Assembly (NCBI GenBank): GCA_028286865.1
Contig: JAQBQU010000010.1
Span: forward strand, 6,143 to 70,142
Source of the DNA: Candidatus Kaiserbacteria bacterium
GTDB lineage: Bacteria; Patescibacteriota; Minisyncoccia; Phycocordibacterales; UBA2100
Length of the DNA: 64,000 nucleotides
Direction of reading: 5' to 3'
Shown here: in pieces, positions 18,912 to 38,108 of the stretch
How positions within the stretch are numbered: the stretch's first letter is position 1
Layout: each line of letters begins with the position of its first letter
Translations under genes and position numbers: made by a program
The notes under the pieces: model-generated
Told to the model about the DNA's origin: nothing
Seen by the model: the letters and a program-made list of their open reading frames with translations, nothing else
Databases searched by the model: none

Positions 18912-20167
<1,256 letters not shown>

Positions 20168-20305: not shown

Positions 20306-20317
20306 ATGTTCATTATA

Positions 20318-21556
20318 TCACTCCTTAACAAGCACACTAATATTACGCTTCCCTCTTTTGAGGATAGCTGCGCCCTTTGAAAAGTCGGATTCTTCGAACA
20401 GACGCTTCTCGTCGCTCAGGCTCTCGCCATTGAGGTAGATAGCGCCTGATGAAAGAAATTGTCGTGCTTGGGTCTTCGATTCCGCGAGACCGCTCTCAAT
20501 GATCGCATCGATCAGCGGACTGCCTACTGCGATCTTTCTGCTTGGGGCATCTGTCGCAATAGCACTCCACCCTTCTTCGGATATTTCCGCATCGCCGAAG
20601 AGGGCCTCGGTCACGAGCTGAGCGCGGTGCGCTGCATCCGCACCGTGCACGATCGTGACCACTTCGATCGCAAGGGAGCGCTGGGCCAGGCGCTTTGAAG
20701 GATCGGTCTTGTGACCGAGCATGATGGCTTCAATATCTGACCAATTCAGAAGTGTGAGCTTCAGCAGATACTCCTCGACGACGTCGTCCTCGCTGTTGAG
20801 CAGGAACTGATACATCTCAAATGGCGTCGTCTTCTTCGGGTCGAGCCAGATCGCACCGCTTTCGGACTTGCCGAATTTCTTGCCTGTGGATTTATTCACA
20901 ATGAGCGGCCAGGTAAGTGCGTAGACTGTCTTCTCCGTTTTTCGTCGTATGAACTCAACTCCCGCAAGAATATTGCTCCACTGGTCCGAGCCTCCCACCT
21001 GCAGGTCGCAGCCATATTCCTGATTGAGATGTAGATAGTCGTAGCCCTGCAAAAGTGAATAGCTGAATTCGGTGAACGAAATAGGAGATTCCTTGGCGAG
21101 ACGGTCATGAACGATATCCTTCTTGATCATCGAATTGACCGTAAAGTGCTTGCCGATGTCACGCAAAAATTCCAGAAGCGAAAGCTTCGAGAGCCACGCG
21201 GCATTATTTACCTCGGTGAAATCGTCCGTTCCGAATACCTTCCGGATCTGAGCCGCGACTGCCGTAGAATTCCTTTTGATGGTCTCCTCGTCGAGCAGAT
21301 TTCGCTCTTCACTCTTTCCTCCCGGGTCGCCTATCATTCCCGTGCCGCCGCCGGTAAGGAGTATCACCTTGTGACCGTCTTCAAGGAATCGGCGCAACAC
21401 CAAAAGACCCATCAGATTGCCGATATGAAGCGAATCGGCCGACGGGTCGATACCGAGATATACCGTGCGCTTGGCACCATCGGTGATCTCCTCAAGTGTC
21501 TCCGAAGACTGCTGATATGCGTAGCCGCGTTCCTTCAATACTTCGGACAATTTCAT
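20318..21556 (-). CDS. tyrS: Tyrosine--tRNA ligase
   Basis: 412 aa with HIGNL (the HIGH motif), KFGKS (the KMSKS motif) and a C-terminal S4-like domain. Confidence 0.95.
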   Translation of the reverse strand: MKLSEVLKERGYAYQQSSETLEEITDGAKRTVYLGIDPSADSLHIGNLMGLLVLRRFLEDGHKVILLTGGGTGMIGDPGGKSEERNLLDEETIKRNSTAVAAQIRKVFGTDDFTEVNNAAWLSKLSLLEFLRDIGKHFTVNSMIKKDIVHDRLAKESPISFTEFSYSLLQGYDYLHLNQEYGCDLQVGGSDQWSNILAGVEFIRRKTEKTVYALTWPLIVNKSTGKKFGKSESGAIWLDPKKTTPFEMYQFLLNSEDDVVEEYLLKLTLLNWSDIEAIMLGHKTDPSKRLAQRSLAIEVVTIVHGADAAHRAQLVTEALFGDAEISEEGWSAIATDAPSRKIAVGSPLIDAIIESGLAESKTQARQFLSSGAIYLNGESLSDEKRLFEESDFSKGAAILKRGKRNISVLVKE

Positions 21557-21582
21557 GCCAAAAATATACCACGGAAATGGGC

Positions 21583-22632
21583 TTAGGCCTGCGGGTCGGG
21601 CATGACCGTATAGAGCGCCTCGATATCTTTCATCACATCGGCGCTGAGCTTGATATCAGCACTGGCGATGTCGGCTTTGAGCTGCTCCATTGATGTGCAG
21701 CCGATAATATTCGCGGTCACGAACGGGCGGTCGTTGGTGAATGAGAGCGCCATCTGAGCAGGGTCGAGTCCATGCTTATGCGCAAGATCGACATATGCCT
21801 GAATACCTGACTGAAGATGAGGGGCATTGTATCGGGCTCGATTGCGAGCGTAGAGCGTGTGTCGCGCGCCCGGCGGATTCGCACCTCCAAGGTACTTGCC
21901 ACTGAGCGCTCCGCCGCCGAGTGAGGAATATGGAAGCAGGCCGACATTTTCATGCATGCACATTTCGGATAGACCGATCTCAAAGAGACGGTTCATGATC
22001 GAGTATTGATTCTGGATGGTTATCACGCGGGGAAGACCTTTTTCTTTTGCGACTCGTAGATACTCCGAAAGTCCCCACGGTGTTTCGTTGGAAATGCCGA
22101 TAAAGCGGACCTTGCCCGCCTTTACGATCTCGCCGAGCGCCTCGAGTGTCTCTTCTATCGGAGTTACATCCTCATCAACGATGTTCTCAAAATTGCGAAT
22201 ACCGAAGAAGTTGGTCGAACGCTCCGGCCAGTGCACCTGATACAGATCGATGTAATCGGTCTGAAGTCGAGAGAGCGTGCCGTCAATTGCGGCGAGTATG
22301 TTCTTTTTATTGTAACGGGTGCGATCACCTTCGATCGGGCGAGTACGGATCAGATTCGATGACGCGACCTTGCTCGCGATGATGAGGTCGTCGCGTTTGC
22401 CACGTTTAGCAAGCCAATTGCCGACGTATCTCTCGGTTGTCCCCTGCTTCTCCGGCTCGGGTGGGATCGGGTACATCTCGGCGCTGTCGATAAAATTGAT
22501 CTCTCCGACCGTCGTCGCGTAATCAAGCTGCTCATGCGCCTCGGCTTCGGTGTTCTGCTGACCCCAGTTCATGGTGCCGAGGCAGATCTTCGAGACTTCC
22601 AGTCCCGTATTAGAAAGTTTTCTGTATTCCAT
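21583..22632 (-). CDS. Aldo/keto reductase (Tas-like NADP-dependent oxidoreductase)
   Basis: 349 aa. The N-terminus YRKLSNTGLEVSKICLGTMNWG and the overall layout are AKR-like. Confidence 0.85.
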   Translation of the reverse strand: MEYRKLSNTGLEVSKICLGTMNWGQQNTEAEAHEQLDYATTVGEINFIDSAEMYPIPPEPEKQGTTERYVGNWLAKRGKRDDLIIASKVASSNLIRTRPIEGDRTRYNKKNILAAIDGTLSRLQTDYIDLYQVHWPERSTNFFGIRNFENIVDEDVTPIEETLEALGEIVKAGKVRFIGISNETPWGLSEYLRVAKEKGLPRVITIQNQYSIMNRLFEIGLSEMCMHENVGLLPYSSLGGGALSGKYLGGANPPGARHTLYARNRARYNAPHLQSGIQAYVDLAHKHGLDPAQMALSFTNDRPFVTANIIGCTSMEQLKADIASADIKLSADVMKDIEALYTVMPDPQA

Positions 22633-22657
22633 AGTCGCGCATTATAGCAAAAGCTAT

Positions 22658-23317
22658 TTATCCCAAATGAGCGTGGTCGTTATACGTCCACAATTTCCAT
22701 TTTGGGGCCGCATTCTGATATCCGCCCGCATATTGAACCACCGAGATGCCCGTATTTTCCGAAGAAACACTTGATTGAATATTCCTAAAATTTTCCGGCG
22801 ACAACGTATCTCCCAGTATCACGCGAGCGAGCATGGTACGGAGAAAAAATCCGTGGGTAACGACCAAGATACCTTTTTCCGGACGACTTAGCAGATACGC
22901 GAGCGCCTTATCTGCTCTCGCCAGCAGATCGGAATAATTTTCACCGTCACGCACTCTGACCGACGGGTCGCCCTGACTTTTGTGCCACTGAAGCCACAAT
23001 GCGTTTGCTTCAGGGTCTGAGTACATTTTACCCGCGAGTCCGGTCGGCTTTACCGATTCAATGAAGAGCTCCGAATATTCGGGTGTCTTACCGGTCTTTC
23101 GCGCAATAGCCTCGGCGGTATCCTTTGTTCGCGGATGCGGGCTGCTGATCAAGGCATCGAACTCGATCTCTGCGGCCCTACTCGCGATCATGTCGGCCTG
23201 CATGACCCCGGTTTCCGTCAGCGGGGAATCGTCAGACTGGAAGCGCGGCGCCACATTGTCCTCACTTTGCCCGTGCCGCACGAAGTACACAGTTTTTTCC
23301 GCTTTCGGATCGAACAT
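22658..23317 (-). CDS. Histidine phosphatase family protein
   Basis: 219 aa with the RHG motif VYFVRHGQSEDN and a later HGFFLR. Confidence 0.8.
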   Translation of the reverse strand: MFDPKAEKTVYFVRHGQSEDNVAPRFQSDDSPLTETGVMQADMIASRAAEIEFDALISSPHPRTKDTAEAIARKTGKTPEYSELFIESVKPTGLAGKMYSDPEANALWLQWHKSQGDPSVRVRDGENYSDLLARADKALAYLLSRPEKGILVVTHGFFLRTMLARVILGDTLSPENFRNIQSSVSSENTGISVVQYAGGYQNAAPKWKLWTYNDHAHLG

Positions 23318-23323
23318 ACTCGG

Positions 23324-23875
23324 TTATTGCTGCACCAGCTCCGCGAAGCGCTTCTTTACTTTCTCGATCTTGGGCTCGATGACCACCTGACAGTAGGGAG
23401 CGGAGGTATTCTGCGCATAGTAATCCTTGTGATAGGACTCAGCGGGATAGAAGGTATCAAGCGGGAGTATCTGCGTCACAACGCTCGTTCCGTCGGTGAG
23501 TGAATCCTGAATGTCTTTCGCGATGCGCTCCGCCGCAGTCTTCTCCTCTTCATTGGCATAGAAGATCACCGAACGGTACTGCTCACCGACATCAGCTCCC
23601 TGCCGGTTGGGTGTCGTAGGGTCGTGAGAGCCGAAGAATACGGTGAACAGATCTTCGAGCGTGATGATCTGCGGGTCATACGTCACCCGGATCACTTCCG
23701 CATGCCCCGTATTCCCTTCCGATACGCGCTCGTACGTCGGACTCCGTCCGTCGGCTGACGGATTCCCTCCCGCATACCCGGGCTCAATGGCGCTCACGCC
23801 CTTGAGCATTTTGAATACGGCCTCCGTGCACCAAAAGCACCCGCCTCCGAATACGATGGTCTGCGTTGCGCTCAT
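23324..23875 (-). CDS. msrA: Peptide-methionine (S)-S-oxide reductase
   Basis: ORF 23324-23980. The conserved part starts at the ATG at 23875 (MSATQTIVFGGGCFWCTEAVF). Confidence 0.9.
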   Translation of the reverse strand: MSATQTIVFGGGCFWCTEAVFKMLKGVSAIEPGYAGGNPSADGRSPTYERVSEGNTGHAEVIRVTYDPQIITLEDLFTVFFGSHDPTTPNRQGADVGEQYRSVIFYANEEEKTAAERIAKDIQDSLTDGTSVVTQILPLDTFYPAESYHKDYYAQNTSAPYCQVVIEPKIEKVKKRFAELVQQ

Positions 23876-23957
23876 ATGACTGATTATACGCCAAGCCGTG
23901 AAATAATACGTATGTTCACGATGTATTAAGCTCGTAACCTCGTAATTCTTCTTTTTC

Positions 23958-25787
23958 ATGCAAGCACATATATCCCGCATCGCCGGGCTTAAGAAGTACG
24001 TGATCGCTCACAAAGTATTGAGCGGTTTTCTCGCCGTGGTCATTCTGGGTGTCGGCTACGCGGGATACAAGCATTTCAATCCGGTCGTCGTACAGACCCG
24101 CTACGTGCTGAGCAATGTCGCGACAGGTACTATCGTCGCGGTCGTTTCCGGCTCCGGGCAGGTGTCTGCTTCTAACCAAGTCGATATCAAGCCAAAGGCA
24201 TCCGGCGACGTAACAGCGGTATTGGTGGCAGAAGGACAGTACGTGGGTTCCGGTGCCGCTATCGCATATATAGACGCGACCGATGCGCAGAAAGCGGTGC
24301 GCGATGCGCAAACCAGCCTTGAGACGGCACAGCTGAGTCTCGAAAAATTGCAGCAGCCTGCCGACACGCTCACGCTGACCCAGGCGCAGAATAATCTGGC
24401 GCGCGCGCAAGAATCACAACAGAGCGCGCAGGATGCGTTGCCAAAAGCGTATGACGATGCGTACACGCAGATAGATTCGGTGTATCAGAACCTGCCGAAC
24501 GTCGTGACCGGGCTCAATTCCATTATCTTTGGCACCGACCGCACGCTCGGCGGCTCAGGACAGTGGAATATCGATTACTACGCCAACTCAATAAATACTC
24601 AGCGAAATAGCCTTGATGCGAACGCTCCTCGGCAGCAGGTCATCGACGGCTACAATGCCGCCAAGAGCGCTTACGATAAGGCGGCAGCTGATTATCAGTC
24701 GGCCTCACGCGCACAAAGCCAGGCAGCAACTGACGCGCTTCTTTCGGAGACCATAAATGCGGTGACGCTCACCTCTGCCGCGGTAAAGAATGCGAGCAAT
24801 TTCATCCAGCTCTATAAGGATACATTCAGCGCAAAGAACGTTACCAGTTCCCCCACCGCTGACACGCACATTACGACTCTGAGCGGGTATATTTCAACGA
24901 CCAACTCCGAACAAGCCGGGGTCAAGTCTTCACAGGCGTCGATAAAGAATGCCCAGCAAGCCATCACTGATGCGATCCGCTCGGTAGCAGAAAGCCAGGC
25001 CTCACTTACCAAGACCACAGGCGGCCCGGATTCGCTCGACCTCCGCTCCGCACAGATCACCGTACAGCAACGCAAAGACGCGCTGACCGATGCGCAGAAT
25101 ACTCTTGCCGATTATTCGATACGTGCGCCGTTCGCAGGCACTATCGCCAAACTCGATCTGCACAAAGGTGACAGTGTCTCTACGGGAACTACTGCGGCGA
25201 CGATCATCACTAAGCAAGACATTGCCGAGCTTTCGCTCAATGAGATAGATGCTACAAAAGTGAAAATGGGTCAAAAAGTGACGCTCACCTTCGATGCAAT
25301 AGACGGGCTCACCGTGACCGGTGAGGTCGCATCTATCGATTCGCTCGGTACGGTGACGCAGGGCGTCGTTTCGTACGCGGTAAAAATAGGATTTGATACG
25401 CAGGATGCTCGCGTAAAGCCCGGCATGACGGTCAATGCGGATATCCAGACTGACGTACGGCAGAACGTGCTGGTGGTGCCGTCAGGCGCCGTAAAGACCT
25501 CCAACGGATCGAGTTACGTACAGATGTTTACCCCGCCGCTGACAGACACCGGGACGGGCAACGCGGGAGTGACGACGACGCAGATCCCCCAGAGCGTACA
25601 GGTAACCATAGGCATTACCGACGGCACTAACACCGAGATCACTGCGGGACTCGCGGCCGGTGATCAGGTCGTAGCGCGTACAACGACCACCAGCGGCACA
25701 GCGACCGCAGCTGCAACTGCGGCAACAAGTAGGACGGGCGCTCGCGGACCGACCGGAGGCACTGCGGTCGGCGGAATTCGTCTCTAG
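23958..25787 (+). CDS. Efflux adaptor (HlyD/MacA-like membrane fusion protein)
   Basis: 609 aa with an N-terminal TM helix, a lipoyl-like segment, a very long Q/A/S/T-rich coiled coil and beta-barrel segments. It sits directly upstream of the ABC ATPase and permease genes. Confidence 0.8.
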   Translation: MQAHISRIAGLKKYVIAHKVLSGFLAVVILGVGYAGYKHFNPVVVQTRYVLSNVATGTIVAVVSGSGQVSASNQVDIKPKASGDVTAVLVAEGQYVGSGAAIAYIDATDAQKAVRDAQTSLETAQLSLEKLQQPADTLTLTQAQNNLARAQESQQSAQDALPKAYDDAYTQIDSVYQNLPNVVTGLNSIIFGTDRTLGGSGQWNIDYYANSINTQRNSLDANAPRQQVIDGYNAAKSAYDKAAADYQSASRAQSQAATDALLSETINAVTLTSAAVKNASNFIQLYKDTFSAKNVTSSPTADTHITTLSGYISTTNSEQAGVKSSQASIKNAQQAITDAIRSVAESQASLTKTTGGPDSLDLRSAQITVQQRKDALTDAQNTLADYSIRAPFAGTIAKLDLHKGDSVSTGTTAATIITKQDIAELSLNEIDATKVKMGQKVTLTFDAIDGLTVTGEVASIDSLGTVTQGVVSYAVKIGFDTQDARVKPGMTVNADIQTDVRQNVLVVPSGAVKTSNGSSYVQMFTPPLTDTGTGNAGVTTTQIPQSVQVTIGITDGTNTEITAGLAAGDQVVARTTTTSGTATAAATAATSRTGARGPTGGTAVGGIRL

Positions 25788-25789
25788 CC

Positions 25790-26500
25790 ATGATCGAGGT
25801 TAAGAACATCACAAAGACGTACGGCGCGGGAGATACTGCCTTCCAAGCGCTCAAAGGAATTTCGTTTGATATTCAAGACGGCGAATTCGTCGCCATTATG
25901 GGACCGTCAGGCTCGGGCAAATCGACGTTGATGCACATTCTCGGCTGTCTTGATACGCCGACGTCGGGCACATACAAACTCGATAACAAAGACGTCTCAA
26001 AAATGGACGACGAAGAGCTTGCGGATATCCGCAAGGACAAGATCGGATTCGTGTTCCAGGCGTTTAATCTACTTCCCCGCACTACCGTGCTTCGCAACGT
26101 GATGCTCCCGCTTATCTACGCGGGAGTGGACGCCGATGAGCGCGAAGCGCGCGCAGAAAAGTCGTTGCTCGCCGCCGGCATGACCGAGGCGCACTTTGCG
26201 CACAAGAGCAACGAACTCTCGGGTGGTCAGATACAGCGTGTGGCCATCGCACGCGCGCTCGTCAATGACCCGTCGCTTATTTTGGCAGACGAACCGACCG
26301 GTAATCTCGACACCAAGACCGGCGAGATCGTCCTCGGGACATTTCAGAAGCTCAATGAGGAACACGGGCGCACGATCATACTTATTACACACGAACCCGA
26401 TGTCGCCGAGCATGCACAGCGCATCATCCATATCCGAGACGGTGAGATCCTCTCCGACAAGAAACATCCGCAGCGCAAGGCGCGGCATCATGCGCAATAG
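25790..26500 (+). CDS. ABC transporter ATP-binding protein (MacB/LolD type)
   Basis: Walker [10 protein letters not shown], signature [15 protein letters not shown], Walker [13 protein letters not shown]. Confidence 0.9.
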
Positions 26501-26502
26501 AT

Positions 26503-27726
26503 ATGAATATCAACGACACGATCCAAGAAACATACGTGGCACTTTCAGCCAATAAAGTGCGCTCGAGCCTTACCATCCTCGGTATTGTTATCGGCATATC
26601 GAGCGTCATCGCCCTTGTATCCATCGGCCAAGGTGCGACCAAGTCTATCCAGACAAGTATTCAATCGATCGGATCGAATCTGCTCGTCATTACGCCGGGC
26701 GCGCAGCGCTCACCCGGCGGGTTCGGTGTCTCATCCGGCCGAGGTAATGCTAAGACCCTGACCGCCGACGACGCGACGGCGATCGCTTCCGTTGCCAATG
26801 TGAGTGCGGTGGCGAGCGAAGTCGCCGGCCGCTACCAAGTGACCGCGCAAGGGACGAACACGAATACGACCGTCACCGGTGTATCTGAAAATTATCCGGC
26901 GGTACGCAATGTCCAGATCGCCGACGGGCGCTTCGTGAACGACTCCGACAGCAATTCGCTGACGAAGGTCGCCGTACTCGGCCCGACCACGGTAAGCGAC
27001 CTGATACCCGATGGCACCGAACCCGTCGGACAGACGGTGCGTATCAACGGCATTCAGTTCAAGATCGTCGGTGTTACGGTGGCCAAAGGCGGCTCGGGAT
27101 TTACCAACGCGGATGATGCGATCTATATTCCGCTCAAAGCCGCACAGCGATTCCTCTCGGGAAATAATTACGTGACCACGATAGACGTGCAGGCCGCAAG
27201 CGCGGATGCGACGACGCAGGTATTAAATGACGCAACACAGCTCTTGCTCGATCGGCATCACATAACTGATCCGACCGCGGCCGATTTCAGTATCCTCAAC
27301 CAGGCGGATATTCTTGCGAGCGCCTCCACCATCACGACCACACTCACCTACCTCTTGGGAGCTATCGCGGGCATTTCACTTTTGGTAGGCGGCATCGGGA
27401 TCATGAACATGATGCTCACGACGGTGACGGAGCGCACGCGCGAGATCGGATTGCGTAAAGCCATCGGGGCCAGGAGATCGGATATCAGCAGACAATTCCT
27501 GATCGAAGCGATCGCGCTTACCGTGATCGGCGGCATTATCGGCATTGCCCTCGGCGGTGCCATATCGCTCGGAGTCAACGCGACCGGATTACTCACGACG
27601 AGCATATCCCTTTCCTCGATAGCCATGGCATTTGGAGTCTCTGCCGGTATCGGTATCGTATTCGGATGGTATCCCGCACGGCGTGCCGCTTCAATGAACC
27701 CTATAGAAGCACTTCGGTACGAATAG
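26503..27726 (+). CDS. ABC transporter permease (FtsX/MacB type)
   Basis: 407 aa. It has TM1, a large extracytoplasmic domain and a C-terminal FtsX module (GGIGIMNMMLTTVTERTREIGLRKAIGA). Confidence 0.85.
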   Translation: MNINDTIQETYVALSANKVRSSLTILGIVIGISSVIALVSIGQGATKSIQTSIQSIGSNLLVITPGAQRSPGGFGVSSGRGNAKTLTADDATAIASVANVSAVASEVAGRYQVTAQGTNTNTTVTGVSENYPAVRNVQIADGRFVNDSDSNSLTKVAVLGPTTVSDLIPDGTEPVGQTVRINGIQFKIVGVTVAKGGSGFTNADDAIYIPLKAAQRFLSGNNYVTTIDVQAASADATTQVLNDATQLLLDRHHITDPTAADFSILNQADILASASTITTTLTYLLGAIAGISLLVGGIGIMNMMLTTVTERTREIGLRKAIGARRSDISRQFLIEAIALTVIGGIIGIALGGAISLGVNATGLLTTSISLSSIAMAFGVSAGIGIVFGWYPARRAASMNPIEALRYE

Positions 27727-27755
27727 GGTGGGGTCTTATAAATTCAAGTGTACGT

Positions 27756-28220
27756 ATGAAAAATAATATCGTGGTCAGCAGCGTAGTCATTGCGGTAGTG
27801 TTCGCAGGCATCGGTTTCTTTAGTGGAACGAAATACCAGGCGGGCCAGACGCCTGCCCGTGGCATGTTTGCGGCAGGTGCGGGAGCGGGTGGCACGACGT
27901 TCGCGGGTGGAGCTGGAACACGCGCCGGTCGCGGCGGTGTAACAGGAGGCGCGGGAGCTGTCTTCGGAACGATCATCTCCAAGGATGCCAATGGCATTAC
28001 TGTGCAGCTCGGCGGACCAAATGCGACTTCGACCAACGGAACTGCCACCGGTTCCAAGATAATTCTGGTGAATGATTCGACTCAGATATCAAAGATGGCA
28101 GCGGGCTCTCTTTCTGACCTCACCATCGGCGAAGGCGTCACCGCAAGCGGAACGACCAACAGCGATGGGTCGGTCACCGCAACGATGATCCAGATCCGTC
28201 CCGTCGGCACCGCCCGATAA
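27756..28220 (+). CDS. Membrane-anchored Gly-rich protein with a DUF5666-like beta domain
   Basis: ORF 27666-28220. The ATG at 27756 gives MKNNIVVSSVVIAVVFAGIGFF (TM helix), then a G/A-rich linker, then GTIISKDANGITVQL...VTATMIQIRP. Confidence 0.55.
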   Translation: MKNNIVVSSVVIAVVFAGIGFFSGTKYQAGQTPARGMFAAGAGAGGTTFAGGAGTRAGRGGVTGGAGAVFGTIISKDANGITVQLGGPNATSTNGTATGSKIILVNDSTQISKMAAGSLSDLTIGEGVTASGTTNSDGSVTATMIQIRPVGTAR

Positions 28221-28238
28221 GGCCGGACATGAGTAAGA

Positions 28239-28264
28239 ACGACCCGGTCCGCCGGGTCGTTTTG
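28239..28264. terminator. Bidirectional terminator
   Basis: ACGACCCGG-TCCG-CCGGGTCGT followed by TTTG. It abuts the PAP2 stop codon. Confidence 0.7.
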
Positions 28265-28915
28265 TTATGAGTGCGAGTGATATTCCCGCGCAACAATATT
28301 TCCGATCAGAGTACCAAATATTGCGCCGGCGGCCACGTCGGACAACCAGTGAAATCCGACCGCTACGCCTACTGCAACGATGCCCATATACAATACCGAG
28401 AGCACTCGTACAGGAGTGTTTTTAAACAGGCGAAATATCGTTACGCCACCCGCAACGGCCACGGCAGTGTGCGAGGATGGCCACCCCCAGAATATTCCGT
28501 TTCGAAGGAATCCGAAATCGAAACGATGGCTTATGTCCGTTGTGCCGATGGATGTAATGAATTCAGGCGGGAGCCTCCCGGTGAATATTTTATACATGAT
28601 CGCAAGGACCGAAGCCAGAATGACAGCAGATGCCACCGCCATGGCCTTGTGCCTCAACGGCCCGTTTCTATTGATCGCTCCGGCAATATACATCCCGAGC
28701 GGAACTACGACCGGCAAAAGGAATCCGCCGATACCCGCTGCCCACACGATCGGATGAAAGATGGTACTTCGCGTGGCTTCGTAGAATGTCCAATCAAGAC
28801 CGGTCGTAACAATCACAAAAGTAATAAGTATTGCGACTGTGTGCCACCACAAGCTGCGGCCCGTGATAGTTGACCAAGCGCTACCAGAGAAATTTCTGAG
28901 TATTTGTCTAAACAT
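28265..28915 (-). CDS. PAP2-family phosphatase
   Basis: 216 aa and polytopic, with the motifs PSSHTAV and GFHWLSDVAAG. Confidence 0.75.
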   Translation of the reverse strand: MFRQILRNFSGSAWSTITGRSLWWHTVAILITFVIVTTGLDWTFYEATRSTIFHPIVWAAGIGGFLLPVVVPLGMYIAGAINRNGPLRHKAMAVASAVILASVLAIMYKIFTGRLPPEFITSIGTTDISHRFDFGFLRNGIFWGWPSSHTAVAVAGGVTIFRLFKNTPVRVLSVLYMGIVAVGVAVGFHWLSDVAAGAIFGTLIGNIVAREYHSHS

Positions 28916-28945
28916 TTTGGCAGTATAACGAATAATATTGGATAT

Positions 28946-28973
28946 TTGACTTATATATACCGAGTGTTATAAT
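28946..28973 (+). promoter_or_regulatory. Near-consensus sigma70 promoter
   Basis: TTGACT (28946-28951), 16 nt, TATAAT (28968-28973). It is followed by an AAGGAGG RBS 6 nt before the ATG at 29003. Confidence 0.6.
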
Positions 28974-29002
28974 AGATTCTGTTCAACCAAGGAGGTTTAC
29001 AG

Positions 29003-29254
29003 ATGCTTGTAACGGCCCGAATCCTCGATGCGCCGGTCGATGATCTCAATCTCACTGTTCGTCACCAAGTGGCGCTCAAGGAGAAAGGTCTTCGGACTAT
29101 CGGTGACATTGTCCAGTCTGATTTTCGGCTCATCGCTATTCGTCGCTACCGGGTTCACCGCCAGGAAGTCGACACCGCGATCGCCGAATATATCGGACGC
29201 AAGGCACTCGCCATCATCAACCCCGAACGCTACAAGGAGGTTCCCCATGCGTAA
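29003..29254 (+). CDS. Free-standing RNA polymerase alpha C-terminal-domain-like protein
   Basis: 83 aa. ILDAPVDDLNLTVRHQVALKEKGLRTIGDIVQ parallels E. coli alpha-CTD [31 protein letters not shown] (recalled from memory). Confidence 0.6.
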   Translation: MLVTARILDAPVDDLNLTVRHQVALKEKGLRTIGDIVQSDFRLIAIRRYRVHRQEVDTAIAEYIGRKALAIINPERYKEVPHA

Positions 29255-29504
29255 GTCCACAGTACGAAATGACGGTCGCGGTTTTTTCGAACACAGCGAC
29301 CGTAAACTCATCAAGCGTCGCTCTGCGCGTCGCCAGCGCAAGGCCAACAAGGACGTTCTCAAGAATACTGAGAACGTCCCTTTTAATTTCTCGGACGAAG
29401 CAGCGGGAACAGCTGCGCTTGATTCACCGGCTTGTTCTCAAGGAATGAAAAGAGGCGCTCGGACATACCGAAGCCGAATGCCGGCGGCATGCCGTATTCC
29501 ATAG
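29247..29504 (+). CDS. Questionable basic ORF translationally coupled to the alpha-CTD-like gene
   Basis: ATG at 29247 with an AGGAGG RBS 6 nt upstream and an ATGCGTAA overlap with the preceding stop. It gives MRKSTVRNDGRGFFEHSDRKLIKRRSARRQRKANKDVLK... The frame runs through the terminator hairpin and 122 nt antisense into lysS, so the true 3' end is unclear. Confidence 0.25.
   Translation: MRKSTVRNDGRGFFEHSDRKLIKRRSARRQRKANKDVLKNTENVPFNFSDEAAGTAALDSPACSQGMKRGARTYRSRMPAACRIP
29351..29379. terminator. Bidirectional terminator
   Basis: GGACGTTCTCA-AGAATAC-TGAGAACGTCC followed by CTTTTAATTT. It lies directly downstream of the lysS stop at 29383. Confidence 0.65.
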
Positions 29505-30834
29505 CTTGTACATAGTCCTCATCGAGGCGCTGCGCCTCACTGTCTCCCGCATCGCGCATTTTCTGCTGGTCTTCGAAGCGCGCGCGCTGGTCCTGCGGAT
29601 CATTGAGCTCCGAGAATCCCTTGCCCATTTCAGAGCCGGCGAGGATGACCTGGAATCGCTCAACGACGTTCTCATTCGATGGACTGCGCTTCGCGAGCGG
29701 CTCCATGTATACCGGCACTCCCGTGAGAAATGCAGGGCCTGATATGGTCTTGCGAATGCTTTTCCACAGAAGATCGATAGCGCGCACTTTGTTGAGCTCT
29801 TCAGATACTACGATCTCCGCATTGCGAACCGCTTGTATCGCCTCCGCTTCAGTGCACGTGAGCGGGTCTATGCCGAATTTCTCGCTGATGATGGAACACA
29901 GATCTATCTCTTTCCATTCTTCCGCAAGATCTACGGTGTGGTCTCCTATTTCGAAGGTGTATTTACCGTACACCTCTTTGGCTATCGTGCGATAGAGATC
30001 CTGCACGAACACCATTCCTTTGCGCATGTCGCTGAAGGCTTCGTATGACTCCCACTGCGTATAGTCCTGCAAATGCTCGCGTGACTGACCTTCATTGCGG
30101 AAGATGCGCCCGATCTCGAATACCTTGGGAAATCCCGCGACGAGAAGGCGCTTGAGCCAGAGCTCGAGAGAGATGCGAAGCGATACGTCGATATCAAGCG
30201 CATTGTGGTGCGTTTCAAACGGGCGCGCCTCAGCACCTCCCGGAGTCGATTCCAAGACCGGTGTCTCCACCTCCATAAATCCGTGTGCGATATAAAAATT
30301 ACGAATTGTCTGCCAGAATTTCGAACGTCGCTCGAACATCTCTCGCACATCCGCGTTCATCAAGATATCCAGATAGCGCTCACGCAATATTTTTTCCTCG
30401 TCTTTGAGCCCGAACCATCCGTCGGGAATCGCGGTAAGCGATTTTGAGAGCATTTTCCAATTCTTAGCAAGGAGGGACTTCTCGCCGCGCTTAGTGATAT
30501 ATGCGCTTCCCGCGGTCTCAATAAAATCTCCGATATCGGTCGCTTCCGAAAAAAGTGCGAAAATCGATTCATCCATTTCATCTTTCTGAAACACCACCTG
30601 CACTTTCGCGGTGCCGTCGTAAAGCGAGACGAACATGATGCCGCCTTGTCCGCGGATCGACATGATCCTGCCGGCGATCGTGAGTGTCGTTTCCGGCGTG
30701 AGGGAATCGAAATTGCCGACGAGATCGGAAATATTAGTATCTTTGCCGGAGTTGACCGGATATCCTTCCATTCCCGCAGCACGGACACGCTCGAGTTTTT
30801 TCAAGCGCTCAGCGCGAAGTTCGTCGATGCTCAT
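29383..30834 (-). CDS. lysS: Lysine--tRNA ligase (class II)
   Basis: 483 aa with an N-terminal OB fold and class II motifs (FRNEGQS, PPAFGFGMSERL). Confidence 0.95.
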   Translation of the reverse strand: MSIDELRAERLKKLERVRAAGMEGYPVNSGKDTNISDLVGNFDSLTPETTLTIAGRIMSIRGQGGIMFVSLYDGTAKVQVVFQKDEMDESIFALFSEATDIGDFIETAGSAYITKRGEKSLLAKNWKMLSKSLTAIPDGWFGLKDEEKILRERYLDILMNADVREMFERRSKFWQTIRNFYIAHGFMEVETPVLESTPGGAEARPFETHHNALDIDVSLRISLELWLKRLLVAGFPKVFEIGRIFRNEGQSREHLQDYTQWESYEAFSDMRKGMVFVQDLYRTIAKEVYGKYTFEIGDHTVDLAEEWKEIDLCSIISEKFGIDPLTCTEAEAIQAVRNAEIVVSEELNKVRAIDLLWKSIRKTISGPAFLTGVPVYMEPLAKRSPSNENVVERFQVILAGSEMGKGFSELNDPQDQRARFEDQQKMRDAGDSEAQRLDEDYVQAMEYGMPPAFGFGMSERLFSFLENKPVNQAQLFPLLRPRN

Positions 30835-30877
30835 GGGTGCTTATGATACCAGATGAAGAGCGGGACGCTATGCCGAA

Positions 30878-31990
30878 TTAGTGATGGTGGCCGCTGTGCC
30901 GGCTATGGGAGACCTTGCCCACCAGCATCCGTACGGATATGAACGTGGTGATGGGTACCGCAAGTACCAAGCCGATCGATCCGATAAGAATGCGCACGAT
31001 CTCGGTGGCAAAGATCTCCCTATTGATCGCCGTGGACCATGTGTCCGTACCATACCCGAAGAACAACAGCAGAAGCGGCAAGGCCGCGCCCACGTACGCG
31101 ATCGCGAGCGTATTGACCAAAGCCCCGATATGTTCGCGGCCGATACGAAGTGCCCGCTTATAAATATGCGCTCGACTGAGCTCGGGAGCCGCGACCGTGA
31201 GTTCCTCCACGGCTACCGCCTGTCCGATCGCCGCATCGTAGAGGACTCCCAGTACGCCGATGAGCATACCTCCCAGGAGAAGTCCCGCGAGATCAATCGA
31301 CCCGTGCGCATTCAGGTTCAGGTATACGGCTTCTTCATTGGCGATACCTGTTAATCGCGTGAACGGGATCGCGGCGTATGCGAGAAGACCGGTGATGACG
31401 ATGGTTAAGACCATGCCGAACACTGCGGTCGAGGTGGTCCTGTTGAATCCGTGGGTTATGTACGACCCCAGACAGATAATGAGAGACGAAACACCCATCG
31501 CGACGAGTACCGGCGGATATCCGTGAAGAATGCCCGGCAAGAGAAGGAATACAATGAAGAAGAGACTGCCGCCCAATGCAAGCAGTCCGCGCGCACCCTG
31601 CTTTCCGCCGAAGAAAAGAACAAGCGCGATAAAAAGGGCGCCGAGTATCGCGAGCGAGCCGAGCCGGTACGGTTCGTATACATAATAGTAATCGGTGCCG
31701 TCCAGCGCATTGACGTCGTGCCTCAGGTAGAACACTTCTCCCTGTTTCAACACGAGATAATCATTGGCGATGGTGACGGTCGTCCCCTGCTCTGCGCCGT
31801 CGAGTATTTGAATCTTGATCGTCTGGGTCGTAGCCGAGACATTAAGGCCGGGGACCTGCTTTGTCTCCTGCGAAACTACCTCAACGACCTTCGCTCTCAT
31901 CGTCGTGATCGTGTCGGATACGAGTTCCTGCGCATGCGCGAACGGCGCAACGAACAGAAGTGCCACTATCGGCAGCAGGAATATCCTCAT
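30878..31990 (-). CDS. YibE/F-family membrane protein with a His-rich tail
   Basis: 370 aa with a signal/TM segment, an extracytoplasmic domain and a polytopic YibE/F-like core (GGKQGARGLLALGGSLFFIVFLLLPGILHGYPP...HGFNRTT). The C-terminus is HSRHSGHHH. Confidence 0.7.
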   Translation of the reverse strand: MRIFLLPIVALLFVAPFAHAQELVSDTITTMRAKVVEVVSQETKQVPGLNVSATTQTIKIQILDGAEQGTTVTIANDYLVLKQGEVFYLRHDVNALDGTDYYYVYEPYRLGSLAILGALFIALVLFFGGKQGARGLLALGGSLFFIVFLLLPGILHGYPPVLVAMGVSSLIICLGSYITHGFNRTTSTAVFGMVLTIVITGLLAYAAIPFTRLTGIANEEAVYLNLNAHGSIDLAGLLLGGMLIGVLGVLYDAAIGQAVAVEELTVAAPELSRAHIYKRALRIGREHIGALVNTLAIAYVGAALPLLLLFFGYGTDTWSTAINREIFATEIVRILIGSIGLVLAVPITTFISVRMLVGKVSHSRHSGHHH

Positions 31991-32039
31991 AAATATATGG
32001 TACCTCCGATCCGCCGTTTCATAAACCCCGGAACTTCGG

Positions 32040-32840
32040 TCAGGGTCGATCCTTTCCAGCCATGATAAGAAGGAAGACTATCAGCATAATGAGCACGATA
32101 GTGCCCCCCGTAGCAAGGTTCAGATAGAACGACGCAAAAATACCGGTCACAACGGAGAATACGGATATCACCTCTGCATAGACGAGAGTTTGCAAAAAAC
32201 TTTTTCGAAGCTGCAATGCGGCGACAACGGGGATGACAATGAGAGCCGCGATCAAGAGTATGCCCACGACGGGAATTGAGAGTGCTACCGTCAACGCGGC
32301 CAGAACAATAAGAACTCTGTTTATGCGATCGACAGCGATCCCGGAGACCCGCGCGGATTCTTCATCGAAGCTGATATATACGAGCTCTTTGTAGAGCGCG
32401 AAGAGAACGCAGGCAACGACAACTGCAAGCACGGCGATGGTATACACGTCAGTCTGTGTCACGGTGACGATGCTGCCAAAAAGATAATTCAGCAGATTGG
32501 CGTTAAAGCCTTTACCGAGACTCAGGAGAACCGTGGCAAGGGCGAGAGCACCGGAAAGAAAAAGTGCAAGAGCCGATTCACCATAAACGCGCTTCGATGT
32601 TCGTAATTTTTCGATCCCGAGCGAAGAAACGACAGTTACGCCTATTGCACTCCACATGGGATTGACTCCGAACAGAAATCCCAATGCTACTCCCGCCAAA
32701 GACACATGAGAAAGTGTGTCCGCGATAAGAGAATAGCGACGCAAGACCAAAAAGATGCCAATGAGTGGCGCAATGAATGCGACGATCACTCCGGCCTCGA
32801 TTCCGCGAACGAAAAAACTGTAGTGCAAAATATCAAACAT
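32040..32840 (-). CDS. Metal (Zn/Mn) ABC transporter permease, ABC-3 family
   Basis: 266 aa and polytopic. LRRYSLIADTLSHVSLAGVALG is typical of ZnuB/MntB-type permeases. Confidence 0.85.
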   Translation of the reverse strand: MFDILHYSFFVRGIEAGVIVAFIAPLIGIFLVLRRYSLIADTLSHVSLAGVALGFLFGVNPMWSAIGVTVVSSLGIEKLRTSKRVYGESALALFLSGALALATVLLSLGKGFNANLLNYLFGSIVTVTQTDVYTIAVLAVVVACVLFALYKELVYISFDEESARVSGIAVDRINRVLIVLAALTVALSIPVVGILLIAALIVIPVVAALQLRKSFLQTLVYAEVISVFSVVTGIFASFYLNLATGGTIVLIMLIVFLLIMAGKDRP

Positions 32841-32843
32841 ACA

Positions 32844-33581
32844 TCATGGATGAGGATGAACTACTGCGTGTGAATCCTTGAAATAGGCGTCGATCGAATC
32901 ATGGAAGAAGATCGTGTGGTCTATGCATGCGATGTGCATGGCTTCGTGCGCCATACTTTCGATGTCGTGAGTTATGAGCACGACCGTGAGATGTAGGTCT
33001 TCATTCAGCTTGCGAAGTAGAGCATAGAACTCGTCCTTGATATGCGTTTCGACGCCAACGGTGGGTTCATCGAGAAATATCACCTCCGGCTTACCCGCGA
33101 GCGCACGCGCTATGAACACACGCTGTTGCTGACCCCCTGAAAGATCACCGATCTGGCGATCCTTGTATTCCCACATTTCTACCTGTTCAAGCGCTTTTCT
33201 TGCCTCAGTGCGGTCTTCTTCTGTCACGCGATGCATGAGACCTCGTCGCCCATAACGACCCATGAGGACGACCTCTCTGACCGTGGCGGGGAAATTCGGA
33301 TCGAAATTCGTTACCTTTTGCGGCACGTAACCGATCTTCGACCAGTCTTTGAACTCCCTTATGTCCTGTCCGAAAAGTAGGACCTTCCCTTTTTGCGGCG
33401 ACAAAAGCCCGAGTATGATCTTCAGAAGCGACGTCTTCCCCGCGCCATTCCCGCCAACAATACCGAGATAATCACCCCGGTGAATGGAAAGCGTGATGTC
33501 TTTCAAGACCTGTGTCGCGCCATAAGAGAACGAAATGTCGCTCACTTCTATAATATTTTCACCGTGATCCGAATTGCTCAT
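32844..33581 (-). CDS. Metal ABC transporter ATP-binding protein
   Basis: Walker A GGNGAGKTS, signature LSGGQQQRVFIARAL, Walker B VIFLDEPT. Confidence 0.9.
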   Translation of the reverse strand: MSNSDHGENIIEVSDISFSYGATQVLKDITLSIHRGDYLGIVGGNGAGKTSLLKIILGLLSPQKGKVLLFGQDIREFKDWSKIGYVPQKVTNFDPNFPATVREVVLMGRYGRRGLMHRVTEEDRTEARKALEQVEMWEYKDRQIGDLSGGQQQRVFIARALAGKPEVIFLDEPTVGVETHIKDEFYALLRKLNEDLHLTVVLITHDIESMAHEAMHIACIDHTIFFHDSIDAYFKDSHAVVHPHP

Positions 33582-34499
33582 TTATATGCATTCTAGCGCC
33601 TTTCTGAGGTTTGCAAGATTGTTTCGCATTACCGTCATGTAGTCCTTCCCGGCAGCGAGATCATCGGCGCTCAGTCCCTCGAGAGGATCAAGTACCATTG
33701 TTTCCGCGCCGACCTCAGATGCGATTGTCTGCGAGAGCTTAGGGGATACGAGACTCTCGAAGAAAATAATTTTTACATTATTTTTTCGCGCAAAATCAGC
33801 AATATCCGCCAGTTCTTTTGTGGAAGGCTCTGCATCGGGAGACAGCCCTGTGATCGCGACCTGGGTCAGATGGTAGGTCGTTGCGAGATAACCAAAGGCA
33901 GCATGTGAAGTGATGATGTCTTTCTTGGCACAGCTTGCCAGACCCGTCTTGAATTCAGAATCGAGTTGGTCCAACTGCGATTTAAGAGCTTCTGCATTCG
34001 CAGCATAATAGGAGGTATTTGACGGATCTATCTGCACGAATCCACGTTCGATCTTATCCACCATCTTCTTAGCAAGAGTCGGCGATTGCCATACGTGCGG
34101 ATCTGTTACGCTCTGTCCGCCCTCTACAACCTGCTGTGTCTCAAGACCTTCTCCGGCTGTCACGATAAGAGTCTTGTTAGGATCAAGATTTTTTTGCATG
34201 TTAACTCCCCACGGCTCAACTCCGCCGTTGAGCACAAGCATTCTGCTGTTCTCTATGGTCGCCATGTCTTGCGCCGTTGGCTCATAGTCATGCGGTTCGG
34301 CGTCGGCCGGCGTAATATTCACTACATCAGCTTTGTCGCCCCCGATCTGACTAGCAAAAAAGTATTCGGGATAAAAACCCGTTGCCACTTTGATCTTATG
34401 TGTATCCTGCCCCGGTGTCCGCTCATGAAAGATCGCAAATGAGATAACTCCGATGATGATGACTCCTATGAGTGCTGCGAACCATTTAGTAGTGTTCAT
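33582..34499 (-). CDS. Metal ABC transporter substrate-binding protein (ZnuA/TroA family)
   Basis: 305 aa with an N-terminal anchor. The pattern is cluster A-I SBP-like (EPHDYEP, DPHVWQSP). Confidence 0.85.
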   Translation of the reverse strand: MNTTKWFAALIGVIIIGVISFAIFHERTPGQDTHKIKVATGFYPEYFFASQIGGDKADVVNITPADAEPHDYEPTAQDMATIENSRMLVLNGGVEPWGVNMQKNLDPNKTLIVTAGEGLETQQVVEGGQSVTDPHVWQSPTLAKKMVDKIERGFVQIDPSNTSYYAANAEALKSQLDQLDSEFKTGLASCAKKDIITSHAAFGYLATTYHLTQVAITGLSPDAEPSTKELADIADFARKNNVKIIFFESLVSPKLSQTIASEVGAETMVLDPLEGLSADDLAAGKDYMTVMRNNLANLRKALECI

Positions 34500-34516
34500 A
34501 TGACTTATTATTTATA

Positions 34517-34954
34517 TTAAGCTGTTTTGACGCAGGTATTGCAGAGTCCAAAAAGCTCAAGCGAATGATTGGTAACTTTTGCGAAGCCGCTCGTCTGACT
34601 CAAGGCTTTATCGGCAAGCTTGTCATAATCGCATCCGGTAAAATCTTCCACTCGGTCGCATCCTGTACAGACAATGTGATGATGATCGTGCGCCGCGTCT
34701 TTCAACTCATAGTAGGCGCGACCGTGCTGGAAATCCACTTGCGCCACAAGTCCGACTGCCTTAAAGGCTTCGAGTATGCGATACACGGTGACCTGGTCGA
34801 CTTTCTCCCGGCCGATCCCCGTGATTATTTCCTTAATGCTCGCCGGATATTCGATTCCATGTAGAAAAGCGAGCACCAGCAGCCGAGGTTTCGTGGCGCG
34901 AAAACCCGCCTTTCTGATAATGCCGGCGAGTTCAACTCCTGCTGGCTTTTTCAT
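34517..34954 (-). CDS. Fur-family metalloregulator (Zur-like by context)
   Basis: 145 aa with a winged helix (TKPRLLVLAFL...VTVYRILEAF), HDHHHIVCTGCDRV and a C-terminal CNTC. Confidence 0.85.
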   Translation of the reverse strand: MKKPAGVELAGIIRKAGFRATKPRLLVLAFLHGIEYPASIKEIITGIGREKVDQVTVYRILEAFKAVGLVAQVDFQHGRAYYELKDAAHDHHHIVCTGCDRVEDFTGCDYDKLADKALSQTSGFAKVTNHSLELFGLCNTCVKTA

Positions 34955-34974
34955 ATGCAGTCATGGTATACCAC

Positions 34975-34991
34975 TTGCAACTGACTTGCAA
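34975..34991. promoter_or_regulatory. Operator-like box 1 (6-5-6 inverted repeat)
   Basis: TTGCAACTGACTTGCAA, 21 nt upstream of the regulator gene ATG. Confidence 0.45.
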
Positions 34992-35030
34992 GTACTTGAC
35001 GACAGCTATAGCGATACCATAGTATGACCA

Positions 35031-35047
35031 ATGCAAGTCAGTTGCAT
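35031..35047. promoter_or_regulatory. Operator-like box 2 (mirror copy of box 1)
   Basis: ATGCAAGTCAGTTGCAT. Its reverse complement matches box 1 at 15 of 17 positions. It lies 17 nt upstream of the ATG at 35064 and just after TTGACG-18-TAGTAT. Confidence 0.45.
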
Positions 35048-35063
35048 TTATAAATAGTCAAAT

Positions 35064-36485
35064 ATGATCATGTATAGCATCAGAAAATATTCGTTCGCAA
35101 CCCTTCCGCTGCTGGCTCTGTATTTCACTCTGATAGCATTTGCTCAGGCAGATACCACGACTGCCCCTTGTCCTTACTCCTGGACGCAAGATCTCCAAGT
35201 GGGCAGCGCCGGCGATGATGTTCTGAAGCTCCAGCAATTCCTTAACTCAGATCTAAATACACAGATCGCGGTATCCGGTGCAGGGTCTCCTGGAAATGAG
35301 AGCACGAGTTATGGACTGCGAACCAAACAAGCCGTCGCAAAGCTACAGGAAAAGTATGCAGCCGATATTTTGTATCCGATCGGACTCGTAAAAGGAACTG
35401 GTTCGGTTGGCATGAAAACTCGAACGAAATTGAACGCGCTGTGCACTACTTCTACGACAACTGCCGCCGTGCAGATCACTCTTTCCGATGCTGAAATTTT
35501 GACTATCACGGATCCGACTCAACCAGCGGCAACACTAGCTCCCCCAGGCGCAGGCGGGGTGCCGTTCACGACAATCACCCTCACGGCCGGAAGTAAAGAT
35601 GTAGACGTGCAGAGTATCACTGTCGAGCGTACGGGTCCTGGATCGGATGGATCGTTCGACAGCATCTCCCTTACGGATGAAAATGGAGACGGCATTGGCG
35701 GCGATGAACATTTCGACTCAAATCACCAGACCGTGTTCCGTGAACCGTTCACGATACCGGCGCACACGTCTAAAACGCTTACCATCTTGGGCAATATGGC
35801 AAATGAGCTAACAGACTATGCCGGACAGACGCCGATAATACAGATCAACGTTATTGATACGTCGGCAAGTGTTGTCGGGACACTCCCGTTCAAAGGCACG
35901 GCCCAGACCATAAACGATTCCCTCATCATCGGAGGCGCGACCGCGATGCTGTCTCAGTATGACCCGGACACGAATACAAATCGCTACATCAACGATACAG
36001 ACATTCGCTTCTCAGGTATTCGTATTACCGCAAACTCCCAAGAAGACCTCACTCTCGATTCGATCACATGGGACCAAGGCGGTACGGCAGGAAATAGCGA
36101 TATCTCGAATGTCGTTACTTTCGTGAATGGAACACCATATCCCACCGAAATGGTCGATCACTCCTATACCTCTACTTTTTTCCCGGGCATTGTGATCCCC
36201 AAGGGCCGATCAATAGATGCGTATATCCAGGGAGACCTCACCACAGGCGGGTCAAATCGAACGGTTGAGTTTGACATAGGCGGTTCAGACGACATCGCTC
36301 TCACTGGCAATACGTTCGGGTACGGTGTAGGAATTTCGGCGCAGGGCAACACTGCCGTGAGCGGTAATTCCGTATTCATTACAAGCGACGGCTCTCCTGA
36401 CGGCGACGAAGGTGGTCCGTTCTATGCCGGATCAGTCGTAACGATCAATGGCAGTGCAGTTACCTCGATCGGGAAAGCGAACTAG
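35064..36485 (+). CDS. Secreted protein with an N-terminal peptidoglycan-binding domain and repeated beta-rich modules
   Basis: 473 aa with a signal peptide and a PG_binding_1-like segment (VGSAGDDVLKLQQFLN...YGLRTKQAVAKLQEKY), followed by two similar Ig-like modules. Confidence 0.65.
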   Translation: MIMYSIRKYSFATLPLLALYFTLIAFAQADTTTAPCPYSWTQDLQVGSAGDDVLKLQQFLNSDLNTQIAVSGAGSPGNESTSYGLRTKQAVAKLQEKYAADILYPIGLVKGTGSVGMKTRTKLNALCTTSTTTAAVQITLSDAEILTITDPTQPAATLAPPGAGGVPFTTITLTAGSKDVDVQSITVERTGPGSDGSFDSISLTDENGDGIGGDEHFDSNHQTVFREPFTIPAHTSKTLTILGNMANELTDYAGQTPIIQINVIDTSASVVGTLPFKGTAQTINDSLIIGGATAMLSQYDPDTNTNRYINDTDIRFSGIRITANSQEDLTLDSITWDQGGTAGNSDISNVVTFVNGTPYPTEMVDHSYTSTFFPGIVIPKGRSIDAYIQGDLTTGGSNRTVEFDIGGSDDIALTGNTFGYGVGISAQGNTAVSGNSVFITSDGSPDGDEGGPFYAGSVVTINGSAVTSIGKAN

Positions 36486-36538
36486 ATCCGCGAACACTGA
36501 CTGCAAATCACTTGTTGGCCGATTAATTGGAGAGATCT

Positions 36539-37111
36539 CTACAGACTTATCCTCATGTACCCGTTATGATCGCGCAGATATTTCTTGGCGATGACGGTCG
36601 TTGCGAATGTCGCGATCATCAGCATGATCCATGCAGCGAGCAAGAGGTCACCCAGATCACTGATCCGTGCCTCGACGACCCGCATGTTGCGTCCCACGAG
36701 CACGAATCCTTTTCCCTGCGGGATGGCTTTTACGACCGCAGCAATGCGAACTCCGACCTCCGGCTCGAGCGTCAGGCGGTCGTCGGAGTTGTTCGCGGCG
36801 TACTCAAAGACACCGGCGGGAGGCACCGGTACGCGGCCGTCGAGCAGGCCCGAGGATACCAGCGGCGTGCCGGTGGCATCGTATACCACCATGAAAGCGG
36901 CGAGACTTCCCGCGATATCGACACTGGTCTTGGGTATGGTACTCGATGCGCTCGCACCGCCCGATATGCGTGCCACAGCGTCCTCGGCGAGCTGTATCTG
37001 AGGGTCATTGAGCGACTGGCGATATATCTGCTGTCCCGAGGCGTATATGGCCAAACAGAGGCCCGTGATGGCCACTGCAAGCGGCAACCAGCTTCTCAGG
37101 TATGTGGGCAT
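36539..37111 (-). CDS. Hypothetical two-TM protein with an extracytoplasmic domain
   Basis: 190 aa with TM helices at both ends (WLPLAVAITGLCLAIY and LLLAAWIMLMIATFATTVI) around a roughly 130-aa domain. Confidence 0.55.
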   Translation of the reverse strand: MPTYLRSWLPLAVAITGLCLAIYASGQQIYRQSLNDPQIQLAEDAVARISGGASASSTIPKTSVDIAGSLAAFMVVYDATGTPLVSSGLLDGRVPVPPAGVFEYAANNSDDRLTLEPEVGVRIAAVVKAIPQGKGFVLVGRNMRVVEARISDLGDLLLAAWIMLMIATFATTVIAKKYLRDHNGYMRISL

Positions 37112-37142
37112 CTATCGACTATACCAGAGCCTTCATAAACGC

Positions 37143-37166
37143 AAAGCGCCTTAGGAAAGGCGCTTT
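37143..37166. terminator. Hairpin enclosing the pyrB stop codon
   Basis: AAAGCGCC-TTAGGAAA-GGCGCTTT. The pyrB stop (complement of 37151-37153) lies in the loop. Confidence 0.45.
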
Positions 37167-38104: not shown

Positions 38105-38108
38105 CGGA

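Follow-up and report, generated by a model that had tools for sequence, protein, structure and literature searches.

The 64,000 nucleotides of Candidatus Kaiserbacteria DNA analyzed here (the window) very probably carry a real monocistronic gene whose 83-aa product descends from the alpha-CTD/(HhH)2 fold, with the first helix-hairpin-helix (HhH) kept and the second remodeled, and which represents a very rare family, lies in a lineage-specific insert, and is not a fragment of rpoA or a duplicate of the host alpha-CTD. On bacterial RNA polymerase, activators and upstream promoter DNA dock mainly on the alpha subunit's C-terminal domain (alpha-CTD). Identity and mechanism taken together form a reading that we hold tentatively and place somewhat below an even chance.

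The gene and its expression signals

The locus is made up of the following features, given in window coordinates.

28265..28915, negative strand: PAP2-family membrane phosphatase gene (216 aa; PF01569, E 5.7e-15); divergent flank
28946..28973, positive strand: sigma-70-type promoter (TTGACT at 28946-28951, 16-nt spacer, TATAAT at 28968-28973)
28989..28995, positive strand: Shine-Dalgarno sequence AAGGAGG, with the ATG 7 nt downstream
29003..29254, positive strand: 83-aa alpha-CTD-like coding sequence (CDS), ATG start, stop codon included
29272..29303, positive strand: 3' UTR hairpin (inverted repeat I3)
29351..29389, positive strand: intrinsic-terminator-like hairpin, an 11-bp stem at 29351-29379 and then CTTTTAATTT
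29383..30834, negative strand: lysS, lysyl-tRNA synthetase, 483 aa; convergent flank

The first-pass annotation described an alpha-CTD-like ORF behind a near-consensus promoter and ribosome-binding site (RBS), and positions 29003..29254 of the positive strand read exactly as it quoted them, with both signals in place. From stop to stop, the open frame spans 92 aa. A TG at 28965-28966, one T ahead of the TATAAT (TGtTATAAT), gives the promoter an extended -10 element, and transcription probably starts near 28980, which would leave a leader of about 22 nt. The signals had also been called the strongest in the window, and for promoter consensus this is true. With an 11/12 match plus the TG, the promoter ranked at the top of the 22 sites returned by a consensus scan of positions 20000-39999, and in a genome-wide scan it was the sole site of at least 11/12 on the contig that holds the window (C11). 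The genome (871 kb in 21 contigs, 90% complete) contained 25 sites of at least 11/12, as opposed to 5 to 7 in each of five shuffled versions. Therefore, the organism uses this promoter type.

Past the stop codon, 141 nt (29255-29395) form an unusually stable fold with two hairpins (z = -3.83). The terminator-like hairpin abuts the stop codon (29383-29385) of the convergent lysS gene. Its stem at 29351-29379 was the first listed and the longest (11 pairs) among the terminator-like sites found in a scan of the 20-40 kb interval, and its T-run is present on the positive strand only. Thus, the promoter, the short leader, the ORF, the structured 3' end, and the terminator make up a compact monocistron.

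Codon usage and codon-position GC content of the ORF are like those of the host's long genes. The codon score was 0.358, with a genome mean of 0.30 +/- 0.14, and the GC fractions at the three codon positions were.70/.36/.61 in the ORF versus.60/.43/.65 in the long genes. A separately assembled contig from the probable source run, which does not constitute independent data, covers positions 28600-29700 unbroken and with zero differences, ruling out a binning or joining artifact. The probable source run is labeled as a soil metagenome. No RNA run was among those listed as containing this DNA, and two metatranscriptome runs of the same study contained next to none of the words of this stretch; these results speak neither for nor against expression.

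Two other open frames overlap the gene. The first, an 85-aa ORF at 29247-29504 of the positive strand (ORF2), overlaps the end of the CDS, has AAGGAGGT 6 nt before its ATG, and is probably not a gene. Neither Pfam nor PHROGs matched it; two strong hairpins, one of them the terminator, make up its first half, the second half lies antisense to the conserved 3' end of lysS, and the apparent RBS encodes the conserved YKE of the CDS. The second, an antisense ORF of 121 aa at 28997-29362, had no Pfam match and was rejected. Apart from a chance match with an E value of 0.4, Rfam returned nothing at the locus, and it returned one tRNA-Ala in the whole window.

Relationship to the alpha subunit

In a search with PF03118, the protein scored 28.7 bits against a cutoff of 23.8 (E 1.1e-6); in a six-frame search of the genome the ORF scored 28.1 bits. 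The match was confined to residues 6-40, corresponding to profile positions 9-43 of 67. The E. coli alpha string with which the ORF had originally been compared is correct: phmmer aligned residues 7-39 to residues 252-284 of full-length E. coli alpha without gaps, and a hand count over this part of the E. coli alpha-CTD (residues 249-329; PDB 3k4g and 1lb2) gave 55% identity. P256, V257, D258, D259, R265, K271, G279, and D280 are all kept. The ungapped alignment makes R20 the equivalent of R265, so that the arginine proposed to correspond to R265 is indeed there (phmmer; alignment A2). Every match up to an E value of 0.02 in a PDB sequence search was an alpha subunit.

The similarity by sequence ends with the first HhH. 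Hhalign related the family to six canonical alpha-CTDs with 90.9% probability over 33 columns and over nothing further, and PF03118 did not match the domain as a whole, with the second HhH and its hairpin glycine. What had been described as the alpha-CTD core thus stands for the first helix-hairpin-helix, while the second half is unmatched. Unlike in the alpha-CTD, the second HhH is unrecognizable by sequence in the ORF, the glycine corresponding to G296 is gone, and the 83-aa family ends in a C-terminal tail of its own, NPxRYKE.

The ORF also differs from the alpha-CTD of rpoA in having no N-terminal domain and no linker. Its description as a domain without either part was borne out, since PF01000 and PF01193 matched only the rpoA gene on contig C13. 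That gene, the full-length rpoA whose presence elsewhere in the genome was to be confirmed, is a single intact copy of 325 aa located beside rpsD. A check for a fragment of a disrupted rpoA found no rpoA remnant adjoining the ORF. BLASTP detected no similarity between the ORF and the alpha subunit of the host; therefore, the ORF is not a recent duplicate of the host alpha-CTD. Over the shared stretch, the ORF was nearer E. coli alpha than the host's own (alignment A2). Classification as RpoA (TIGR02027; PF01000 + PF01193 + PF03118) was rejected for a protein of 83 aa without the N-terminal domains, and the NCBIfam rpoA models scored 12-22 bits on the ORF as opposed to cutoffs of 228-523.

The family consists of three 83-aa members (the query, P0002, and P0049) and two tandem forms of 136 aa (P0047 and P0050). 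The sole true relative in an exhaustive HMMER search over 1.84 billion representatives was P0002 (83 aa, 55% identity, E 2.4e-20). A profile search added P0049 (83 aa, 63% identity) and P0050, the second tandem form beside P0047, and a word-based search, run against 5.8 billion proteins, retrieved the ORF's own protein alone. All five members are singleton clusters from short contigs (3167 nt for P0049 and 1138 nt for P0002), among ~15 billion for the query (P0001), P0002, and P0047, and among 5.8 billion non-redundant proteins for P0049 and P0050. Scans of genome contigs and metagenome contigs for the DNA of the relatives found none. An Atlas search with residues 41-83 alone gave no score above 0.81, a noise level. 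Residues 7-47 of the query also matched two long proteins of eukaryote type that carry MELT repeats and a Knl1 RWD domain (P0003 and P0012), with E values of 4e-10 and 2e-5; they were taken as spurious, repeat-driven hits and not as relatives.

Among the 83-aa members, 21-23 of 34 positions are identical in the N-terminal half and 21-26 of 42 in the C-terminal half. The two halves, at 50-68% identity, are thus about equally conserved, and the changes between homologs are mostly conservative. Conserved polar residues are N16, H21, Q22, E27, K28, S39, D40, R48, R53, T58, E62, Y63, N73, R76, Y77, K78, and E79, a set that takes in the family tail. The acidic pair at D258/D259 is only partly conserved, reading DD, DK, and EE in the three 83-aa members. 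PF03118 covers the 83-aa family over profile positions 8-45 only; P0049 scored 16.1 bits, and P0002 gave no match at E <= 0.001.

An AlphaFold model built from a two-row alignment (the query plus one homolog) had a pLDDT of 87.4 and a pTM of 0.75; the pLDDT of a single-sequence model was only 67. AlphaFold predicted helices at residues 2-8, 19-27, and 33-38, strands at 43-46 and 49-52, and a long helix at 53-72. Compared with the alpha-CTD, the ORF is thus predicted to have a beta-hairpin (43-52) and a longer last helix, the hairpin being a prediction of the two-sequence model. Foldseek returned no match to the model at E <= 0.001. Its top rows were almost all alpha-CTD chains, many of them aligned over 30-36 columns with an rmsd of 0.8-1.2 A and 50-56% identity, and many E. 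coli alpha-CTD chains superposed on the first HhH of the model with an rmsd of about 1 A. The best hit of a wide structural search was the B. subtilis alpha-CTD (1z3e_B), with a Z of 6.9 and an rmsd of 2.4 A over 60 of 67 residues, and other (HhH)2 domains ranked next with Z scores of 5-6. A Z of 6-7 lies in the middling range according to the tool, and the first model gave similar figures. On our reading of the model, the first HhH would be a near-consensus alpha-CTD motif, and the second half appears rebuilt, with the last helix in roughly its usual position.

The second acidic repeat of NusA (AR2) is an (HhH)2 domain that binds protein and not DNA. E. coli NusA-AR2, solved in complex with alpha-CTD (2jzb_B), shared the general fold with the ORF model at a Z of 4.2, which is within the noise range of the tool. 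The NusA acidic repeats AR1 and AR2 showed no sequence relationship to the ORF.

Distribution and genomic context

A six-frame search with the ORF protein as the query found it in 1 of 41 relative genomes, namely, that of the host (G000). The family profile (A1), also run against six-frame translations, gave one strong match in 116 genomes of the genus, again in the host; four weak matches (E 0.007-0.009) were rpoA genes. At E <= 1e-4, the same profile found the host alone among 401 genomes of the order and the host alone among 401 genomes of the phylum.

The neighboring lysS gene was present in all 31 genus genomes searched. At 29 other loci fetched with a lysS query, one of which was a weak paralog, the ORF was absent (E <= 0.1). 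In one of the relatives (G002), the PAP2 gene comes 15 nt after lysS and no ORF lies between them. The host has ~470 nt between lysS and the PAP2 gene, comprising the promoter, the ORF, and the terminator, with opposite orientation. In the closest relative (G022, LysS 86% identical), the order is an upstream DUF5666 gene, a terminator, and then lysS. The PAP2 gene is variable downstream of lysS, occurring there in the host and in G002 and missing from this locus in G022. The terminator between the DUF5666 gene and lysS in G022 looks bidirectional.

The insert between lysS and the PAP2 gene is single-copy in the genome. None of the repeats around it resembled element ends, and no transposase or integrase was found at the locus. 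The ORF protein had no match in PHROGs or PADLOC, none by tblastn against 50,697 phage records, and none in a scan of IMG/VR; its relative P0002 had one PHROGs match with an E value of 0.17. Given this lack of PHROGs, PADLOC, phage-record, and IMG/VR matches, an origin from a phage, a defense system, or a mobile element was rejected. The gene has no operon neighbor that would point to a partner.

Possible roles and other lone alpha-CTD proteins

As a possible, still doubtful, mechanism, we propose that the protein is a small module for protein-protein interaction and not a binder of UP-element DNA. Since two-domain fusions also exist in the family (P0047 and P0050), the single-domain protein would probably work as a dimer. 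Its target would be a part of the transcription machinery, or a regulator, able to recognize alpha-CTD-like surfaces, and docking there would modulate transcription, with the protein acting as an adaptor or a decoy. A complex prediction with region 4 of the primary sigma factor of the host (residues 365-448 of a 448-aa ORF, L059) and alignment A1 scored 0.01 against a mark of 0.32; it thus gave no answer and counts neither for nor against binding. Besides the primary sigma factor, the host has four further proteins containing sigma region 4.

A bolder version of this proposal is a long shot. The protein would belong to a rare, highly expressed "half-alpha-CTD" family that keeps the face around the 261 determinant together with the first HhH, exchanges the DNA-binding second HhH for a beta-hairpin and a helix, and acts in trans as a mimic of the polymerase tail (an anti-alpha factor or an adaptor), rewiring transcription in a reduced genome that has few regulators. 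If true, mimicry or titration of the polymerase tail by a trans-acting copy would be a simple and new form of transcription control, of greatest importance in very small genomes where classical regulators are few. As it stands, the protein is one more uncharacterized small accessory protein from a rare family, and its presence in 1 of 116 genus genomes limits its biological reach. It is nevertheless a convenient test case, being short, having clear expression signals, and showing which half of the domain is constrained.

The same rarity raises the question of whether the gene does anything for its carrier; the selected function of an orphan found in a single genome of the genus may be slight or absent in the host. 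We consider it unlikely that the gene is in fact a young or decaying orphan without a selected function, a harmless stray that horizontal transfer or a mobile element left behind. Such an origin would fit an insert that separates two genes adjacent in G002, a family composed of five singleton clusters, and the lack of a functional neighbor. However, the reading frame is intact and its start matches those of the homologs, both halves are 50-68% identical among the three equally long members, and the codon usage is host-like. A full set of strong expression signals would not be expected of junk, and neither transposase, integrase, flanking repeats, nor phage similarity was found. The interaction module proposed above remains our preferred reading.

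The first-pass annotation suggested that a detached alpha-CTD might compete with the alpha subunit for UP elements, an idea that bears on the surface by which the alpha-CTD contacts DNA. G296 and K298 belong to this surface. In six canonical alpha-CTDs, including three extra ones from the genus, the only invariant columns were R265 and G296. According to the published account (PMC1874639), the 265 determinant, centered on R265, binds DNA and has S266, N268, C269, L270, and S299 in or near it; contact with sigma region 4 is made by the 261 determinant, in or near which R255, P256, D258, E261, and K271 lie; and contact with CRP is made by the 287 determinant. At R265 and G296, and in pI, the 83-aa members read as follows.

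R265 position: R in the query, R in P0049, P in P0002
G296 position: Y in the query, W in P0049, S in P0002
pI: 9.59 for the query, 6.72 for P0049, 4.96 for P0002

It is distinctly unlikely that the free domain binds AT-rich upstream DNA in the manner of the alpha-CTD and thereby competes with RNA polymerase alpha or coats the DNA. The fold family, (HhH)2, does often bind DNA, and the query combines the R265 equivalent with a basic pI and six arginines within residues 42-53; P0049 likewise keeps R20 and the basic stretch. However, P0002 has a proline at the R265 position and an acidic pI, and none of the three 83-aa members has the glycine of G296. In the query, N268, C269, G296, K298, and S299 are replaced by V23, A24, Y49, V51, and H52, respectively (alignment A2, which is uncertain in the second half), and a beta-hairpin is predicted in place of the second HhH, which bears half of the DNA contacts. 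The variation at R265 and G296, the other changes at the surface, and the spread of pI values therefore make a conserved alpha-CTD-like DNA-binding role unlikely, and they leave the idea of a UP-element competitor weak. By the same token they favor protein binding, as does the set of conserved polar residues with its family tail. The query and P0049, both with the arginine and an Arg-rich stretch at 42-53, may bind nucleic acid.

A role of the locus mainly as RNA, in which convergent transcription or a structured transcript would lower PAP2 expression or affect the 3' end of lysS and the ORF would be secondary, is very unlikely: the unit does lie antisense between two genes that form a 15-nt-spaced pair in G002, the scan showed no minus-strand PAP2 promoter in 28916-29383, and the 3' UTR is unusually structured with a one-sided T-run, but conservation of the protein in two other sequences is unexplained by an RNA-only role, no Rfam family matches, and the interference is pure inference.

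Whichever role the protein has, it belongs to a larger set, the descriptive class of proteins with one alpha-CTD-like domain only (here 83 aa and one domain); this class is not a curated family. Lone alpha-CTD proteins are common in databases and in the genus, and probably in the phylum. In the ESM Atlas, PF03118 clusters had lengths of 68, 71, 87 (351 members), 100, and 123 aa, the last of them viral. The best matches outside the family among the 1.84 billion representatives contained two to seven canonical alpha-CTD repeats, some of them fused to TPR or to sigma-70 region 4. The earlier statement that no characterized stand-alone copy was known agrees with our literature search, in which no described function for a stand-alone alpha-CTD protein was found and subscription journals were scarcely covered; such copies are nonetheless common in databases.

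Within the genus, 7 of 116 genomes, including the host, had a second PF03118 match. In the six genomes other than the host, the match lies in short ORFs of differing architectures, located as follows.

L051, 2940-3218: extra alpha-CTD ORF
L056, 2797-3222: extra alpha-CTD ORF
L054, 1923-2360: extra alpha-CTD ORF
L055, 2871-3212: extra alpha-CTD ORF
L052, 2967-3431, negative strand: extra alpha-CTD ORF
L053, 2620-3207, negative strand: extra alpha-CTD ORF

They include a lone domain of 92 aa (genome G080), proteins with Cys-rich N termini carrying motifs such as LEPCIAC and LTPCTSC (G071 and G074), a fusion to a sigma-70 region-4-like tail (G014), and one weak case with a zinc-ribbon-like N terminus. 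None was related to the 83-aa family at E <= 0.01 in a search with profile A1. The extent of the PF03118 match also sets the family apart: all 16 of the scanned non-family matches with PF03118 and four of the six genus ORFs reached profile positions 63-67, whereas the 83-aa family covers only 8-45.

In a phylum sample, ~62 of 301 genomes listed two or three PF03118 matches by hand count, matches not being equivalent to copy numbers. In some phylum families, f147 and f178 among them, nearly every genome had two PF03118 matches, and the rpoA open frames were 380-410 aa long. This pattern may reflect duplication or extension of the C-terminal region of the alpha subunit. On contig C13 of the host, a 340-aa ORF on the negative strand (L058, 676-1698) begins with a sigma-70 region-4 match of 59.5 bits, followed by ~270 aa; the N terminus is an unusual place for sigma-70 region 4.
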